Under the pieces are notes generated by a model. It had not been told where the DNA came from and did no database searches. It saw only the letters and a list, made by a program, of their open reading frames with translations. Position numbers and translations under genes: made by a program. DNA of 64,000 nt from an uncultured Alphaproteobacteria bacterium. GTDB lineage: Bacteria > Pseudomonadota > Alphaproteobacteria > HIMB59. Of this stretch, positions 27,934-58,042 are shown one piece after another. Each line of letters starts with the position of its first letter. The first letter of the stretch is position 1. The DNA lies in the NCBI GenBank assembly GCA_902599045.1, contig CACKEA010000001.1:204985-268984 (forward strand), in the 5' to 3' direction.

Positions 27934-27969
27934 CTTCATATTTCTATCTAATACTGTTATAAGATAATT

Positions 27970-28060
27970 TGAGAATTACATGGGCAACTTTTTATGCCAA
28001 TCCGGTCAGGTTCGAAAGAAAGCAGCCGTAACATAAGAGGTTGGGTCGTGTAATTCTCCT
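27970..28060 (+). ncRNA. ffs: Signal recognition particle RNA (4.5S)
   Basis: CAGG-TTC-GAAA-GAA-AGCAGC domain IV motif; closing stem GAGAATTACA/TGTAATTCTC; directly upstream of dnaX. Confidence 0.92.
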
Positions 28061-28071
28061 TTGAACCTGTA

Positions 28072-40936: not shown

Positions 40937-41011
40937 TGGCGGTTCTGCAAGGATTCGAACCCTGAATTCTTGATCCGTAGTCAAGTGTGATATCCGTTTC
41001 ACCACAGAACC
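40937..41011 (-). tRNA. tRNA-Arg(ACG), 75 nt with encoded CCA
   Basis: Full cloverleaf: GGTTCTG/CAGAACC acceptor, GTGA/TCAC D-stem, CTTGA-CTACGGA-TCAAG anticodon arm, TTCGAAT T-loop. Confidence 0.97.
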
Positions 41012-41066
41012 TTAATCAAAGTATATCACCATTATTCAATCGTTGTACTTAATCCTACGAAACCTA

Positions 41067-41083
41067 TACGGGCTCTATACGGG
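41067..41083 (+). repeat. Paired direct repeat TACGGG-N5-TACGGG (putative integrase arm site), cassette 1 left
   Basis: tacggg-ctcta-tacggg, 56 nt from tRNA 5' end. Confidence 0.7.
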
Positions 41084-41105
41084 CAAAGGTTTCAGAAAGG
41101 TGAAT

Positions 41106-41435
41106 ATGGGAAGTATAACTAAACGAAAGATGAAAGATGTAAAGGGCAATCGGTATGTCTTGTTCCAAGCTGAAGTGAACATGAAGGGACAAAGATACTC
41201 CCGTGCTTTTCAATATATGCGGGAAGCAAAGGCTTACATAAGCGAACAAGAGGGATTAATCAGTAGAGGTTGTTTGTCGGGGGGAGGGAACAACGTTGTG
41301 TTTCCTCCACCCTTAGTGTTGCAGAGGTGTGAAATCTTCAAACCTCTAGTTAAAGGGGTAAAGTTCCCAAACTGCTTTGCCATCTGCATCGGCTTCGTAA
41401 GTAAATGCGTAAAATTTACCATTCAGTTCAGATAA
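41106..41435 (+). pseudogene. Tyrosine integrase remnant: N-terminal arm-binding domain only
   Basis: MGSITKRK...FQAEV..KG.RYSRAF....EAKAY...E..I.RG resembles integrase N-termini; no core-binding or R-H-R-Y catalytic domain follows. Confidence 0.6.
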
Positions 41436-41750
41436 CGCTTCAGATGTGGTTTCGAATATAGCGCCGCCTCTAAAAGAAGTGCCTCCATCTTTCCTCTGGT
41501 TTCCGACACCCGTAGCTTTATATGTGGCGACACCTTCTGCACACATTACAACCCCAGCATAGGCATTTCCTGCCCATGAACCATCTGGTCTCATTTCGGC
41601 TGTAAATGAGCCAATAGACTGAACATCATGACCTAGCATCGTTCCGCTCCCTTCAGCAGTAATGTCCATAGCAGGTAAACCATATTTACCAGAGACTATT
41701 GGCTTATTAGTTTCCTGTAATGTCATTGTTCCAATTTTATCACCAAGCAT
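41346..41750 (-). CDS. Hypothetical beta-rich protein (134 aa)
   Basis: Clean ORF with AGGAG RBS upstream; GC-richer than flanks. Confidence 0.75.
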   Translation of the reverse strand: MLGDKIGTMTLQETNKPIVSGKYGLPAMDITAEGSGTMLGHDVQSIGSFTAEMRPDGSWAGNAYAGVVMCAEGVATYKATGVGNQRKDGGTSFRGGAIFETTSEALSELNGKFYAFTYEADADGKAVWELYPFN

Positions 41751-41936
41751 TGTTAATCTCCTTTTCTAAAATTTATATAATAAATAATTATAATAATTAC
41801 TTGCTTATAATAAATTTAAATTTTTGTTATTATTTTATTACAAAGATTTGTAGAGTTTTAAAATTGAAAGCACTAAGCTAATAAAAAAAAATAGAAGAAC
41901 AAAACCAAAGTACTGGCACCCAAGACTTGATTTTTC

Positions 41937-42419
41937 ATGAAAAAAATACTCCCCATCCTTTTACTTTTTTGCCATGTATCGGTGGCCAGTGAAATGAAAC
42001 TAATTGGAGAGGGAACATTGACCGTTCTATTCTTTAAAGTATATGACATTCGCCTCTTATCCGACTCCAAGCTCTTTTCATGGGAGAATAAATTTCAATT
42101 AGAGTTTGAATACAGACGTAACATTACCAAGGAGCGTGTGATTGACTCGTCTTTAAAGGAACTCAAACGCCAGCATAACGTCACCGAGCAAAACCTCGAG
42201 GAATGGAAAACATACCTTGAAGAGGTCATCCAACCATTACAAGAGGGCAGCAAAGCAACAATAGAATGGAACCCCCAAGGAACAATTACGTTTCAAAATG
42301 AAGGGTTGAAGTCAGTGACGATTAAAGATGAGAGTTTTGCTCGCTCTTATTTAAAGATATGGCTAGGTGAGGAAACTTCACAACCCAACCTCCAAAGTCA
42401 ATTATTGGGCGAGAATTGA
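41937..42419 (+). CDS. Chalcone isomerase-like fold protein, exported
   Basis: Signal peptide; G.GTL..LFFKVYD and IWLG..TSQP.L..QLLG patterns. Confidence 0.7.
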   Translation: MKKILPILLLFCHVSVASEMKLIGEGTLTVLFFKVYDIRLLSDSKLFSWENKFQLEFEYRRNITKERVIDSSLKELKRQHNVTEQNLEEWKTYLEEVIQPLQEGSKATIEWNPQGTITFQNEGLKSVTIKDESFARSYLKIWLGEETSQPNLQSQLLGEN

Positions 42420-42536
42420 CAAAGGGTCTAATCAGAGGTTACATATAGCAAAATGGAATACTACTTTAAAAAAGCAATAAATTAATAATGGCAATAGAGA
42501 TTAAAACAAATCTGAAATGCAAAAGGGATGTATTTC

Positions 42537-42691
42537 ATTACGGGCTCTATACGGGCGACATTGATAAAATGTTGTTAAAGCTCCAAGAATAGTATTGATA
42601 ATAAATAAATTAAAGAAACGTAGGATATCCGTAGTCAAATGTGATATCCGTTTCACCACAGAACCATTAGCTTGATTTATATACTCTTTTT
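42537..42691. repeat. 155-bp att-like repeat, copy A (arm + tRNA-Arg 5' half + promoter-side 26 bp)
   Basis: Ungapped alignment to 43681-43835 with 16 mismatches in 155 nt. Confidence 0.92.
42539..42555 (+). repeat. Paired direct repeat TACGGG-N5-TACGGG, cassette 1 right
   Basis: tacggg-ctcta-tacggg, 88 nt before core. Confidence 0.7.
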
Positions 42692-42721
42692 TTAGATAAT
42701 AAACTTTTATACAATGTTCAT

Positions 42722-42738
42722 TACGGACTCATTACGGG
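42722..42738 (+). repeat. Paired direct repeat TACGG(A/G)-N5-TACGGG, cassette 2 left
   Basis: tacgga-ctcat-tacggg, 57 nt from core end. Confidence 0.65.
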
Positions 42739-42745
42739 CAAAACT

Positions 42746-43648
42746 ATGAAAATATTCTTTCTTCTGTTTATTTTTCTACCCAGTTTAGTACTTGGTTCAA
42801 ATTTTAATGAAATAAAAAAAGTTTTAAAACAGGATGGTTTTGGAATTATAATACCTGAGGAGTTTCATTCTTTAAATTCACCAAAAGCAAAAAATCCTAT
42901 TTCAGTAAGTGATATTTCAATAATTGGAGACAAATCTATAATGTTTGAAGTAAACAACGGAGAATGTGGAGAAGGGTCTAAATCAAGCGATTGTGATACT
43001 GATAGAGAGAGGTCTGAAATATATTATAGTCACGAAAAGTGGAAGGAGGAGAAGTGGTATAAGTTCTATATTTTACTTCCAAAAGACTATAACTCTATTG
43101 CTCCATCAAAAATGTCACTAATTCAATGGAAAAGACATAATCCATCTAAAGTTTTAGTTATGTTTCAACACACTCATGCAGGATTGACTTTTAACAGAAA
43201 CGGGACTTCATTTGAGGACTCTCACATAGTTTTAAAAAGCAATGATGACCTTTTAGGACAATGGACAGAAATAATTTTTAACACTAATTGGCACCCAGAT
43301 GAAAATAAAGGCTTCATGAGAGTATGGATAGATGGCATTTTAAAAGTTGATTTCAAAGGAATTAGCAATACATCTGAAGGCGAAGAGTTAAACCTTAGGT
43401 ATGGATTATACGCCTCTGCAATCTCACGTTACAAAAAAGTATTTAATACCGAGATAGTCCCACAGCGAGTCATTTATTTTGATGGTGTGAGTGCGGAGTC
43501 TAAATGTGAAAAGTTACTAGATAAGACTGAATGTAATAAATTATTTTCTCAAACAATCGAAAAATATGAATTATTTATGTATGATAAAAATGATAAAAAA
43601 TTTCATAACCATTCTATTGTTAAATTACCAATAAATTTTTTAAAATAA
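42746..43648 (+). CDS. Exported polysaccharide lyase-like (jelly-roll, heparin lyase I-like) protein
   Basis: Signal peptide; DC..DRERSE, W.Y.F....P.D, QW, W.....N.NW, G.MRVW.DG, ..YGLY pattern; family call from memory only. Confidence 0.6.
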   Translation: MKIFFLLFIFLPSLVLGSNFNEIKKVLKQDGFGIIIPEEFHSLNSPKAKNPISVSDISIIGDKSIMFEVNNGECGEGSKSSDCDTDRERSEIYYSHEKWKEEKWYKFYILLPKDYNSIAPSKMSLIQWKRHNPSKVLVMFQHTHAGLTFNRNGTSFEDSHIVLKSNDDLLGQWTEIIFNTNWHPDENKGFMRVWIDGILKVDFKGISNTSEGEELNLRYGLYASAISRYKKVFNTEIVPQRVIYFDGVSAESKCEKLLDKTECNKLFSQTIEKYELFMYDKNDKKFHNHSIVKLPINFLK

Positions 43649-43680
43649 AAAAGTTTAAATTCAAAAAATATTTTATTTTT

Positions 43681-43835
43681 ATTACGGGCACATTACGGGA
43701 TACATAGATAAAATGTTGTTAAAGCTCTATGAAACGTATTGATAATAAATGAATTAAAGAGACGTAGGATATCCGTAGTCAAGTGTGATATCCGTTTCAC
43801 CACAGAGCCGTTAGTTTGATTTATATACTCTTTTT
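43681..43835. repeat. 155-bp att-like repeat, copy B
   Basis: Matches 42537-42691; contains 39-bp tRNA-Arg 5' half at 43771-43809 (38/39). Confidence 0.92.
43683..43699 (+). repeat. Paired direct repeat TACGGG-N5-TACGGG, cassette 2 right
   Basis: tacggg-cacat-tacggg, 88 nt before core. Confidence 0.7.
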
Positions 43836-44289
43836 AAACTCTAAAATAGGCTTTTACTTGTGGTCGAAACATTAATAAAAGAGCGATAAATTGTATTAAT
43901 GTGTTTAAACTTAAAATCGTTCTTATGCTCATTTCATTAATGCCAATCTCTGGAAAAGGTGAGAAAGGTGCTGAAAAAGAGTGTGATAATGCTCCAAATA
44001 AATCAAAAATCCCAACCGCATTCCAAGCTAGCAAAATTCCCCAAAGTAAAGCTGATGGCTTTTTCCATATCCTATAAGCAAGAAATAATGCAGTAGTGCC
44101 TATCACGAAATCGCCAAGAAAAGCTATAGTCCAATCAGATGAAGCTGCACGTTCACTTCCTATAGCTCCGAGTGTAAGAAAAAGACCAGAGCCAACTGCT
44201 CTAAACACCATCCATCCAGTTGTAAAAATTAATAATTTTACTTGAATATGCATCTTTATAACTCTAGATAAATAATGTGAATTATACAA
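43834..44289 (-). CDS. Hypothetical 4-TM membrane protein
   Basis: Hydrophobic helices; real start probably the internal Met (44253). Confidence 0.7.
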   Translation of the reverse strand: MYNSHYLSRVIKMHIQVKLLIFTTGWMVFRAVGSGLFLTLGAIGSERAASSDWTIAFLGDFVIGTTALFLAYRIWKKPSALLWGILLAWNAVGIFDLFGALSHSFSAPFSPFPEIGINEMSIRTILSLNTLIQFIALLLMFRPQVKAYFRV

Positions 44290-57028: not shown

Positions 57029-58009
57029 TTATTTACTTGGATTTTTTTCCTTGTATGTCTTTTCTAAACTTATGTCGTCGACTTCAGTGTATAATTGAGT
57101 TGTAGATAAAGAGCTATGACCTAATAATTCTTGAATAATTCTCAAATCCCCTCCATTTTTTAACAAATGTGTTGCAAAACTATGTCTTAAAGAGTGTGGT
57201 GTTGCTGTTTTTGGAAGACCTAAATTAACTCTGGCATTTTTTAAATCCCTTTGAAAAGATGAAGCCTTAAGAGGACTCCCTCTGTCTCCAACAAATATCG
57301 AAACATTTTTAGGTAATTCATAAGGTATTTCGTTTAGATAATTTTCTATTGAGTTTGCAACAATATCGAGAACTGGCACTAATCTTTCCTTATTTCCTTT
57401 TCCCAAAATTGTAAGAGAATTTTTATCAACCAAATGATTCTTAGTAATTGATAAAGCCTCATTTATGCGCAGACCACACCCATATAAAAGATAGAGCAAT
57501 GCAAGATTTCTTTTTTGAATCCAAGTTTTTTTTGAAATTTTTTTTAACTCATTAATTAAAAGTTCTATATCTCCCTCTGATATAGGTTTTGGCAAAGACC
57601 TTGGAATTTTTGGATTTTTTAATAATTGAACCTCACTATAAGCAATTTTATATAAGTCATTTTTAAAAGATGTATACTTAAAATAATTCTTAATAGAACT
57701 AATAGCTCTTCTTCTAGATCTAGCTGACAAGGGTTTTTTATAAACATTTTCATATTCCCTATTTCCACCAAGGTCTGCTAACCATGCTCTAAATGTTTGT
57801 AATTTTAAATCTTTTAAACTGGATAAAGATACGGAATATCCATTATAGTACTTAAAAAAAATTAAAAAATCGCATACATCAAAACAGTATGATCTATAAG
57901 TATTTTCAGAATGTCCTTTTATATCTTTTAAATGTGTGGCCCATTTATCAAAGTCTTGTATTGAGGATTTATCTATTTTTGACCTTTCTAGCAGTTCAAT
58001 AAAATTCAT
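57029..58009 (-). CDS. xerC: Tyrosine recombinase XerC
   Basis: R (GLRINE), K (GKGNK), HSLRH, LGH, Y (TTQLY); next to priA as in many alphaproteobacteria. Confidence 0.85.
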   Translation of the reverse strand: MNFIELLERSKIDKSSIQDFDKWATHLKDIKGHSENTYRSYCFDVCDFLIFFKYYNGYSVSLSSLKDLKLQTFRAWLADLGGNREYENVYKKPLSARSRRRAISSIKNYFKYTSFKNDLYKIAYSEVQLLKNPKIPRSLPKPISEGDIELLINELKKISKKTWIQKRNLALLYLLYGCGLRINEALSITKNHLVDKNSLTILGKGNKERLVPVLDIVANSIENYLNEIPYELPKNVSIFVGDRGSPLKASSFQRDLKNARVNLGLPKTATPHSLRHSFATHLLKNGGDLRIIQELLGHSSLSTTQLYTEVDDISLEKTYKEKNPSK

Positions 58010-58042
58010 TACATTATATTATAAATTAGAATCAAAATTTAA

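Follow-up and report, generated by a model that had tools for sequence, protein, structure and literature searches.

The window analysed here is a stretch of 64 kb from a SAR11 (Pelagibacteraceae) genome, in which an intact tRNA-Arg(ACG) gene (40937-41011, minus strand; identified by ARAGORN, Rfam tRNA score 60.6 bits) marks the left end of an array of small units. Since the gene is encoded on the minus strand, positions 40973-41011 correspond to tRNA nucleotides 1-39, i.e., the 5' half up to and including the anticodon loop and one further base. This core (copy 1) recurs at 42627-42665 (copy 2) and at 43771-43809 (copy 3), each time matching the tRNA 5' half at 38 of 39 positions. The recurrence, which had been pointed out in the original prediction, was confirmed, and extra copies of the 39-mer did not arise by chance in any of 100 dinucleotide-preserving shuffles. 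The left-hand array junction (40937-41011) is composed of the host 3' part (40937-40972) and core copy 1, whereby the crossover is presumed to locate to the left edge of this copy within the anticodon loop, a known att sublocation for tyrosine integrases. The identity stops at the 3' edge of the anticodon loop, and this boundary was identified in several independent element lineages. Between the window and L047 the core differs at two SNPs, which are too few, and too exposed to possible gene conversion, to place the crossover.

Core copy 2 and its flanks form an attP-like P-core-P' junction (42533-42760) between the two units of the array, while core copy 3 forms the distal array end (P-core-B'), with B' (43810-43835) being the native tRNA-upstream sequence that was pushed outward by the insertions. 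The B' sequence is also found after the last core in L013, L014, L018, L022 and L047. The resulting topology, in which the tRNA represents B-core-P', copy 2 P-core-P' and copy 3 P-core-B', matches the prediction for tandem integration. The anatomy of discrete integrative units stacked at the tRNA 5' half held, as did most of the other points of the original prediction, none of whose refuting outcomes came about. Unit A (41012-42665) comprises 1654 bp and unit B (42666-43809) 1144 bp, in agreement with the sizes of 1.65 and 1.14 kb given before, and both have nothing in common except their att ends. The repeat in which the core copies are embedded is real and ungapped as described, but it extends over 159 nt at 89% identity (42533-42691 versus 43677-43835) and not over 155 nt at 139/155; near-perfect identity at each junction spans about 66 bp.

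Within these junctions, four paired TACGGG-N5-TACGGG repeats were identified (41067-41083, 42539-42555, 42722-42738 and 43683-43699), which the original prediction had missed and which are the only such pairs in the 64 kb, where 0.01 would be expected. In unit A, the P' spacer (41012-41066) is of the type found in integrase-bearing elements (88.5% identical to L025) and carries a -10-like TATACT on the minus strand, immediately upstream of the 5' end of the tRNA. It is followed by the P' arm pair (41067-41083, plus strand; TACGGGC, 11-nt spacing), which locates directly upstream of an integrase stub. At the other end of unit A, the P arm pair (42539-42555, plus strand; TACGGGC) is followed by a P spacer of about 70 nt (42556-42626) of the 'mini-cassette' type, so that unit A is a composite of an autonomous-type P' spacer and a mini-type P spacer. 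The P' spacer of unit B (42666-42721) is a copy of the intergenic sequence that natively lies upstream of the tRNA, and has a -10-like TATATAAAT on the minus strand and a conserved TTGATT-17-GATAAT on the plus strand; the subsequent P' arm pair (42722-42738, plus strand; TACGGA/TACGGG) stops 7 nt before the cargo ATG, and the P arm pair is found at 43683-43699 on the plus strand. The prediction that each incoming element must bring a new promoter was borne out insofar as every unit possesses its own copy of the tRNA-upstream, promoter-like region; a promoter consensus scan did not exceed the background of this AT-rich DNA (21 hits as compared to 14.7 +/- 4.1 expected).

The arm geometry was found to be rigid, with a spacing of 11 nt, a distance of ~53 nt to the right of the core and of ~89 nt to the left of the next core. 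Integrases of the lambda Int family are three-domain (heterobivalent) enzymes, whose arm-binding N-domain recognizes arm-type repeats flanking the attP core. Judged by sequence, the unit ends correspond to such a lambda-type attP layout (P arm, core, P' arm) as it would appear after tandem integration. All elements and cassettes possess matched arm pairs, placed at fixed offsets on either side of a 38-39-nt core, and five or six arm classes can be distinguished, among them TACGGG, TACACAC, TACCGG, TAACACAC and TACCCG. The arm class is identical at both ends of a unit in 8 of 8 non-TACGG units, while across junctions it often differs. The mini-type P spacer is kept in 31 of 31 array junctions irrespective of the arm class and is ~26 nt shorter than that of every integrase-bearing element sampled; as a consequence, the arm geometry of the cassettes and that of the integrase-bearing elements are not identical.

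The predicted content of one or two cargo genes per unit without a complete integrase was found to be correct, as unit A contains the integrase stub and two ORFs and unit B a single ORF. The first ORF of unit A (41346-41750, minus strand, 134 aa) is without family match and shows 96-100% identity across 9 genomes. The second (41937-42419, plus strand, 160 aa) is chalcone-isomerase-like (PF16036) with a signal-peptide-like N-terminus, and its slot in the same cassette is occupied by a cupin gene in other species. The cargo ORF of unit B (42746-43648, plus strand, 300 aa) likewise possesses a signal-peptide-like N-terminus and is polysaccharide-lyase-like (PF14099), with a weak match to the glucuronan lyase 2zzj; the exact lyase-like protein has no record in the assembly index. 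Between the array and a conserved ion-channel gene, a DUF6962-like membrane ORF is located (43834-44289, minus strand). This ORF is probably an old cassette which lost its outer att site, as many SAR11 species lack it or possess other content at this position.

The integrase stub of unit A (41106-41270, plus strand) is a pseudogene of the N-terminal, predicted arm-binding 55 codons only, which was identified through phmmer matches to P0001-P0005. It is the sole member of the integrase family in the window (E 8.5e-23 against the family profile), and the DNA homology of unit A to the integrase-bearing L025 stops near 41281. A word-indexed protein search with the 55-aa stub gave no match, and P0001-P0005 were found by an index-free search. 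The stub led to P0003 and from there to P0006-P0013, all of which comprise 328 aa and possess PF00589 (the tyrosine recombinase catalytic domain); word-indexed searching returned members of this 328-aa family only. Truncated integrase stubs (P0001, P0002, P0004, P0005, P0014 and P0015) end at several different points. In the AF2 model of P0009, residues 1-53 fold into three strands and a helix (E-E-E-H; pLDDT ~80-87), with full-length lambda Int ranking first among the Foldseek matches (1z1b_B, E 2.9e-6), whereby the TM score is low as the domain orientations differ. From the model it is suggested that residues 1-53 represent a lambda-type arm-binding N-domain. The N-domain is the most divergent part of the family (52% as compared to 78% for the catalytic domain).

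Full-length integrases beside the same core were identified in integrated as well as in attP form. P0009 is integrated beside panC and the tRNA in L025, L026 and L029, while an identical P0009 in L027 and L030-L032 is found in attP form, with its own P arm on the left and matching arms on both sides; the two forms of one element are documented for integrase-bearing elements only. The 6.76-kb element L042 is bounded by one core copy on either side, beyond which different sequence follows that is not part of the element. L039 possesses an intact integrase together with CATTACGG arms, which is the arm class of the window cassettes. As L039 and the stubs share these arms but differ in their N-terminal sequences, covariation of N-domain and arms is not strict. 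For the TACACAC, TACCGG, TAACACAC and TACCCG classes, none of the ~20 integrase loci provided a cognate integrase. The integrase-bearing elements comprise about 4.8-7 kb and encode a T7 gp2.5-like ssDNA-binding protein and a 493-aa phrog_4756 protein; in complete elements (4.8-6.8 kb) no structural gene was recognised, and no excisionase was identified. L038 and L040, both bulk-metagenome contigs, contain ~1.9 tandem element copies (99.4% and 98.8% identical, respectively).

Comparison with relatives revealed that the same tRNA carries one to three units in about 22 SAR11 species and close strains, whereby cargo, number and order of the units vary and unit sizes range from 0.65 to 4.9 kb. Within the 8 kb examined per locus, an intact integrase was found in 0 of these 22 arrays. 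Cassettes are 94-99% identical between genomes whose panC and ion-channel genes are 77-79% and ~82% identical, respectively; cassette identity thus lies far above that of the flanking panC, which shows that the cassettes spread horizontally. The lyase cassette is a case in point, as its DNA is 97-99% identical in L009 and L019 despite panC identities of 78-79%, while a 'fixed' lyase copy without outer att site is only 84% identical and possesses decayed arms. Strains with 99.1-99.5% identical flanks were found to carry different arrays; in L047, an extra 4.9-kb unit locates beside the tRNA and the lyase cassette is absent. The variability in cassette number, order and cargo that had been put forward as a check was hence observed down to 99% identical strains, and this difference between near-identical strains renders the tRNA-Arg site a gene-swapping hotspot. 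In L055, another of the strains with near-identical flanks, a polyol-utilisation element was found that spans at least 9 kb and whose integrase is truncated; its arms are degraded where the integrase was truncated in place. In four metagenomes, the lyase cassette showed a depth of 20-95 as compared to 90-1000 for its flanks, while the integrase body reached a depth of 1-4 in the same samples. Overall, integrase-bearing elements are about 1% as abundant as the arrays, and the water samples with the cassettes also contain such elements of the matching arm class. Neither an excised circle of an integrase-less cassette nor a P-core-P' junction joining the two ends of one such unit was seen. The metagenome data consist of short-read contigs and yielded depth and some rearranged joints; excised circles cannot be seen with them, as these contigs break at the repeated core.

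Considering these data, it is suggested, with a rough probability of 0.65, that the locus is an additive island upstream of tRNA-Arg(ACG) built by lambda-type site-specific recombination, with units A and B being non-autonomous miniatures. The parent family would be small integrating elements (about 4.8-7 kb) with a 328-aa tyrosine integrase and an N-terminal arm-binding domain, whose attP is ordered as P arm (two 8-9-mers, 11 nt apart), spacer, core, spacer, P' arm and integrase start codon, the core of 38-39 nt being equal to tRNA nucleotides 1-38/39. Crossover in the anticodon loop, as we infer it, would place the element upstream of the tRNA and would replace the tRNA 5' half together with the promoter region. 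Each unit of the window has kept matched P' and P arm pairs and the core, whereby unit A retains 55 integrase codons and unit B has a cargo gene at the position of the integrase start. Repeated insertion at any of the core copies may then yield a tandem stack, whose units may become fused or fossilised by deletions. The att architecture, the matched arms, the cognate intact integrases in attL and attP form, the horizontal spread and the strain-level turnover are documented. Binding of the arm repeats by the integrase N-domain is suggested. The same holds for mobilisation in trans, which the original prediction had put too firmly: rare integrase-bearing relatives with a matching arm class would excise and insert the integrase-less cassettes. 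A wider proposal is put forward tentatively and may well prove wrong: SAR11 populations would maintain a distributed, integron-like cassette economy, in which a large pool of integrase-less cassettes with one to a few genes is addressed by arm class, rare cognate helpers (about 1% of cells) mobilise it, the 5' half of tRNA-Arg(ACG) serves as one shared landing pad, each cassette renews the tRNA promoter, and diversification of arms and N-domains creates orthogonal mobilisation groups competing for the site.

It was also considered whether the units are dead remnants, spread and reshuffled by homologous recombination with the 100-160-bp junctions as portable homology and with DNA delivered via vesicles, transduction or similar. 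This explanation would account for 0 of 22 arrays containing an integrase and for stubs truncated at several points; moreover, the ~66 bp of near-identical junction sequence could support RecA-mediated exchange, the fused or composite units (the unit A spacers; the swap of the cupin and chalcone-isomerase-like genes) suggest recombination plus deletion, and the mini-type P spacer is unlike that of all integrase-bearing elements. However, functionless arms should decay, while they were found to be intact and class-matched at both ends despite unrelated cargo, and they are degraded exactly in the fixed lyase copies without outer att site and in L055 with its integrase truncated in place. The co-occurrence of same-class integrase-bearing elements in the water samples likewise speaks against the remnant explanation, which is regarded as the less likely one but as a serious rival. 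An assembly artefact or a simple local duplication is practically negligible: 159-nt repeats can confuse assemblers, but more than 20 single-cell genomes, each assembled independently, as well as many contigs from metagenomes show the same architecture with different cargo, which refutes the misassembly named in the original prediction, and units A and B resemble each other in their att ends only.

A true integron, with folded single-stranded attC-like sites and a resident integron integrase, would fit the small one- or two-gene cassettes, the one-directional array and the single site. It is nevertheless extremely improbable, as single-strand folding of both strands of both junctions is no better than that of shuffles (z -0.26 to -0.82), the array holds no integrase apart from the stub, the 64 kb contain just one further tyrosine recombinase, a XerC-like gene (57032-58018) 13 kb away, the related integrases are lambda-like with a predicted arm-binding domain, and each cassette has its own promoter-like spacer. 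The earlier term 'integron-like' is therefore useful as an analogy but fails as to mechanism, for the att sites are double-stranded, lambda-type sites with arms, without a resident integrase or attC-type fold and with a promoter-bearing spacer per cassette. Scars left by integration of temperate pelagiphages (HTVC019P-type podoviruses) share the host and the 5'-side logic; HTVC120P was reported to target a tRNA-Arg (bioRxiv 10.1101/410191), and the integrase-bearing elements carry the T7 gp2.5-like protein. Against this stands that neither the att region (blastn) nor the integrase stub (tblastn) gave a significant match in 50,697 phage genomes, which renders scars of a sequenced pelagiphage unlikely; that no phage integrase exceeds 26.5% identity to the integrase of the elements, with no pelagiphage among the matches listed; and that the elements comprise only 4.8-6.8 kb without a recognised structural gene. 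IMG/VR contained neither an exact match to the P-core junction 19-mer nor a relative by integrase profile, and a phage origin of the scars is thus regarded as very unlikely.

The site-specific, additive island preferred here is a variation on known kinds, namely tycheposon-like islands and CIME-like cassettes, and is not an integron; added here are the paired arm repeats at both ends of each unit at fixed distances from the core. Tandem integration and decay at tRNAs are part of the published tycheposon model (Prochlorococcus; Hackl et al., bioRxiv 10.1101/2020.12.28.424599), with which the locus shares a streamlined marine bacterium as host, rare tRNA-specific tyrosine-recombinase elements, some of them with nutrient-uptake cargo (here the L055 polyol operon), tandem elements with partial tRNA copies between them, fragmented integrases and degenerate remnants, and island growth beside the tRNA, where variability is highest. 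In contrast to tycheposons, the bulk here consists of integrase-less mini-cassettes with complete, class-matched arm sites, several arm-specificity classes use one core, and the target, the 5' half of tRNA-Arg(ACG), does not belong to the seven sites known from Prochlorococcus. For CIMEs (cis-mobilizable elements), and for accretion-mobilisation at the att sites of ICEs, a review is available (PMC5704250). CIMEs are att-flanked units without integrase that either stand in tandem with cognate integrative elements or descend from them, and genes are captured as units accrete at the end of a tRNA or other gene. Like these, units A and B, and over 20 further units, are att-flanked without integrase or transfer genes, L039 being cognate by arm class, but conjugation machinery is absent here, and the units are much smaller (0.65-4.9 kb), outnumber their autonomous relatives by far and occur as multi-unit arrays in many species.

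As compared to integron cassettes, the one- or two-gene units at one site, an integrase that, if any, comes from elsewhere and the population-level adaptive gene pool are alike, whereas double-stranded lambda-type att sites with arms replace the folded attC, resident intI, attI and Pc are lacking, and the role of platform is played by a tRNA gene, of which each insertion renews the 5' half and the promoter. With lambda-type systems the locus has in common the three-domain integrase, the arm repeats on both sides of the core and the identity block ending at the anticodon loop. It differs by its mirror orientation, as the identity block stretches from the loop as far as the tRNA 5' end, for which reason the element must also supply the promoter, and by arm sites that are simple pairs 11 nt apart, with no excisionase identified. 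The use of the 5' half, called unusual in the original prediction, has a precedent, as SAR11 podophages (HTVC019P-type) were reported to replace the 5' part of tRNAs (bioRxiv 10.1101/410191); these share SAR11 hosts and a tRNA 5' part provided by the incoming DNA, while the phage satellites termed VEIMEs (PMC9618062) are by description small integrative elements with tandem or concatemeric copies (here L038 and L040). The integrase found here differs from phage integrases at the sequence level (at most 26.5% identical) and is without match in viral collections. Pelagibacter recombinase-associated elements were noted before (PMC11876622), as were 'gene cassettes' of SAR11 islands that are marked by repeats of partial tRNAs (PMC11796062) and additive flexible genomic islands (PMC10872708). 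The latter two describe the same phenomenon, i.e., tRNA-linked islands with repeated tRNA fragments and without integrase, but provide neither the anatomy of the att sites and their arms nor an integrase family nor evidence that cassettes spread horizontally.

No bacterial group of the ocean is more abundant than SAR11, which is usually described as being without canonical mobile elements. For the movement of its huge flexible gene pool, the locus offers a concrete and testable mechanism, with a defined att site (core plus arm repeats) and a defined integrase family, and yields a catalogue of cassettes that crossed species boundaries and turn over between near-identical strains. The integrases form a natural set with one shared core and apparently different arm specificity, which makes them interesting for the study, and possibly the use, of heterobivalent recombinase specificity. 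Elsewhere in the window, a low-GC region at 19-24 kb was considered as a second island and proved to contain ordinary glycerol-metabolism and transport genes.

The tRNA-Arg(ACG) gene (40937-41011, minus strand; ARAGORN; Rfam 60.6 bits) is the sole tRNA of the window, and its nucleotides 1-39, i.e., the 5' half with the complete anticodon loop and the base after it, correspond to plus-strand positions 40973-41011. Two further copies of this 39-mer core locate to 42627-42665 and 43771-43809, each with one mismatch; a shuffled-sequence control allowing up to three mismatches returned no match. The copies delimit unit A (41012-42665, 1654 bp) and unit B (42666-43809, 1144 bp), whereby cores 2 and 3 are enclosed by an ungapped repeat of 89% identity, measured here as 159 nt, so that the repeat structure described in the original prediction proved correct. 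Absent from that description were paired repeats of the type TACGGG-N5-TACGGG (11 nt start-to-start), which a motif scan identified at 41067-41083, 42539-42555, 42722-42738 and 43683-43699, all on the plus strand, and nowhere else in the 64 kb (chance expectation 0.01). One such arm pair resides about 53 nt right of cores 1 and 2, another about 89 nt left of cores 2 and 3. With P and P' denoting arm pair plus spacer on either side of the core, and B and B' the host sequence at the array ends, the junctions read B-core-P' at the tRNA, P-core-P' at core 2 and P-core-B' at core 3, which is the product of tandem integration of circles possessing a lambda-type attP. The boundary of P arm and core (42617-42636, and likewise 43761-43780) forms a 20-bp near-dyad, GACGTAGGAT/ATCCGTAGTC, and the junction's minus-strand 9-mer ACGGATATC is found once more 22 nt away, within the D-loop of the tRNA. 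At this boundary integrase-bearing relatives instead possess the direct repeat ACTACG-N3-ACTACG, and both are possible core-type binding sites.

Unit A opens with an ORF starting at 41106, just past the first P' pair, the first 55 residues of which resemble an integrase N-terminus before unrelated sequence follows. Its cargo comprises a 134-aa ORF that matched no family and a secreted protein of chalcone-isomerase-like type (PF16036). Unit B encodes a single secreted protein resembling polysaccharide lyases (PF14099), with 7 nt separating the P' pair from its ATG. Apart from the integrase stub, the only tyrosine recombinase of the window is a XerC-like protein encoded 13 kb from the array (57032-58018, minus strand), which matches PF00589 and Phage_int_SAM_1, has XerC as its best, albeit under-cut-off, NCBIfam match and is devoid of an arm-binding domain; it is probably the housekeeping dimer-resolution enzyme. 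Elsewhere in the window a bacterial small SRP RNA was identified (27969-28063, plus strand; Rfam 57.8 bits).

An index-free search with the 55-residue stub retrieved longer stubs and one full-length protein of 328 aa (P0003), whose relatives P0006-P0013 are all of about 328 aa and possess the PF00589 catalytic domain. In the respective contigs the core locates immediately upstream of the integrase gene, with the P' arm pair before the gene, and hence the full-length integrases that the original prediction presupposed beside the same core were found. The family occupies the tRNA-Arg(ACG) site in attL as well as attP form: the identical integrase P0009 occurs in integrated copies with panC and the tRNA 3' half to the left (L025, L026 and L029), and in an attP form with the element's own P arm there, carrying the same TACGGC(C) repeats (L027, L030-L032). 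Arms of other integrase-bearing stretches read TACCCAC (L038), CATTACGG (L039, of the same class as the cassettes in the window), ATGATGCAC (L040, L057-L060) and AAAACGCAC (L033-L035, L041, L042). For the ATGATGCAC lineage, the core of the attP form begins one base later than that of integrated copies, and the shared block is exactly tRNA nucleotides 1-38, with the final base of the anticodon loop as its end. Because of this block, and since the same boundary was found in every lineage, the crossover would, by the standard logic of tRNA att sites, lie in the anticodon loop. For P0009, the AF2 model predicts an N-terminal three-strand-plus-helix domain (residues 1-53, pLDDT about 80-87) and has full-length lambda integrase as its top PDB match; predicted structure and sequence together support assignment to the lambda type. 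The N-domain, for which the arm repeats are putative binding sites, varies most within the family (52% mean identity versus 78% for the catalytic domain), which fits a diversifying arm specificity, although covariation of N-domain and arms is not strict (L039 versus the stubs).

The autonomous, i.e., integrase-bearing, elements also encode a T7 gp2.5-like ssDNA-binding/annealing protein, two small ORFs and a phrog_4756 protein of about 495 aa. Two metagenome contigs hold about 1.9 head-to-tail copies each, with a period of 4836 bp in L038:1-9305 and of 5556 bp in L040:1-10007. As these copies are only 99.4% and 98.8% identical, respectively, they are not a simple circular-assembly artefact and represent either tandem integrations or replicative concatemers. 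A further, integrated element of 6.76 kb (L042) has the core at both ends and different non-element sequence outside. At its left junction (L042:1-130) the core carries four mismatches and the sequence to the left holds no recognisable tRNA 3' half; possibly, this copy occupies a secondary site, or a degenerate one, in a different host. No relative of the integrase family was found in IMG/VR, where the 19-mer of the array's P-core junction is absent too, and identity to phage integrases is at most 26.5%. In metagenomes holding the window's array, the integrase body reaches a depth of 1-4 as compared to 400-2700 for the core and P' region, i.e., roughly 1% or less. The autonomous elements look like tycheposon-like or satellite-like small elements rather than phages.

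Exact matches to the junction 19-mer GTAGGATATCCGTAGTCAA were obtained in 24 DNA stretches from species-representative genomes, 22 of them from SAR11/Pelagibacteraceae single-cell genomes, and wherever the fetched stretch reaches the tRNA, the copy sits at tRNA-Arg(ACG) beside panC. The SAR11 arrays consist of one to three units of 649-2927 bp with cargo nearly all different between genomes (lyase-like, cupin, HNH/HIT and NucS-like nucleases, PLD-like and many small secreted or membrane proteins). The paired-repeat geometry is identical in every array unit, whereby the motif varies by class: TACGGG(C), TACACAC, TACCGG, TAACACAC, TACCCG and, once, TCCGACA. Arms are matched within each unit, the P' class equalling the P class in 8/8 non-TACGG units, whereas the class frequently differs across a junction. 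The units are therefore discrete elements, each being a circular permutation of its own attP, and their att anatomy is of the lambda type.

Integrase-less cassettes have spread horizontally. Identity to most array genomes is 77-79% for the window's panC and about 82% for the ion-channel gene on the far side of the array, versus 94-97% for the left part of unit A in ten array genomes. The lyase cassette is 97% (L009) and 99% (L019) identical to that of the window, and in both genomes it occupies another array position with other neighbours on both sides. Cassettes are also gained and lost between strains, with the att repeats as bounds. Strains with flanks 99.1-99.5% identical to the window carry other arrays, which, starting from the tRNA, comprise a 4.9-kb TACCCG-class unit, unit A and B' (L047), unit A and B' (L052), unit A and a different gene set (L050), or unit A followed by an element of at least 9 kb (L055). 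The latter (L055:8866-18016) holds a truncated integrase of 240 aa, decayed arms of the ATGATGCAC class and a mannitol/polyol uptake and utilisation operon (mannitol dehydrogenase, SDR, ABC sugar transporter, LacI regulator), a type of nutrient-uptake cargo also reported for tycheposons. The lyase cassette has a contig depth of 20-95 in four marine metagenomes, versus 90-1000 for the flanks. The anticipated variability of cassette number, order and cargo hence extends down to strain level.

The mini-cassettes, i.e., the integrase-less units, differ from autonomous elements in their spacers. All 31 array junctions, irrespective of arm class, share a "mini" P spacer of about 70 nt, as found at the right end of unit A, which is about 26 nt shorter than that of every integrase-bearing element. 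The mini-cassette P' spacer copies the native tRNA/ion-channel intergenic region (as in L009 and L017), and contains TTGATT-17-GATAAT oriented towards the cargo gene as well as, upstream of the tRNA, a -10-like TATATAAAT; as was originally proposed, tRNA 5' half and promoter region are therefore renewed with each insertion. Insertion also places the first gene of the unit at the start position of the ion-channel gene or of the integrase. Unit A is composite, having an autonomous-type P' spacer, which together with the stub shares 88.5% identity with L025 as far as about 41281 and has no match beyond, and a mini-type P spacer. When positions 41800-42500 were compared with the unit A homologues in L001-L024, the cassette being otherwise 94-97% identical, the right-hand cargo gene of the window's species was seen to encode a chalcone-isomerase-like protein of 160 aa, that of other species a cupin of 143 aa. 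A cupin-only unit of 649 bp occurs in L022, and contigs of two metagenomes join 42705 back to 42532, yielding an "empty" unit of 174 bp (42532-42705) in which the P' spacer leads straight into the P arm with zero cargo. From these findings it follows that deletion and recombination within the array also shape units. A further metagenome joint connects 43652 via 37 extra bases to 41804, so that in other genomes the chalcone-isomerase-like gene is preceded by sequence matching that directly behind the lyase stop codon.

Rare cognate integrases, acting in trans, would excise and insert the cassettes. As the main rival explanation, the cassettes may be inert remnants which are exchanged by homologous recombination via the junctions, whose sequence is near-identical over about 66 bp. 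Yet cassettes with unrelated cargo have retained intact arm pairs of matching class, and arms have decayed exactly where a unit lost its att end or was otherwise fixed: the lyase homologue that abuts the ion-channel gene without an outer att copy is 84-85% identical and its P' repeats are degraded. Both observations argue against the rival. The array had originally been likened to an integron, but an integron-type mechanism was rejected, as the junctions possess no single-strand fold (z -0.3 to -0.8) and there is no resident integrase. A DUF6962-like membrane ORF (43834-44289) separates the last att copy from the conserved ion-channel gene. It is found only in the window's relatives, other SAR11 species either having another gene in its place or lacking one, and is likely a fossil cassette.

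For Prochlorococcus, the tycheposon model describes rare elements with tRNA-specific integrases, whose tandem integration and decay give rise to islands (10.1101/2020.12.28.424599). Recombinase-associated elements near tRNAs were reported for Pelagibacter (PMC11876622; PMC9618062), SAR11 podophages are reported to replace the 5' part of tRNAs (10.1101/410191), and att-flanked units without integrase are known from ICE biology as CIMEs (PMC5704250). In the literature searched, neither an att anatomy in which several arm classes share a single core, nor this integrase family, nor abundant uniform mini-cassettes crossing SAR11 species boundaries were found. The finding, while not categorically new, holds genuine interest for marine microbial genomics and recombinase biology.

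The architecture is not confined to tRNA-Arg(ACG). In L039 (380-760) a full-length tRNA-Met(CAT) has paired GGCAACGC repeats, 11 nt apart, on both sides and is followed by a second integrase of 316 aa; this element is a sister lineage of the same architecture which targets tRNA-Met. About 7.2 kb on, a tRNA-Arg-type attP with its integrase follows (L039:7224-7884), and about 400 nt before each attP are repeated with 84-100% identity; the two lineages are apparently joined in tandem or as a co-integrate.
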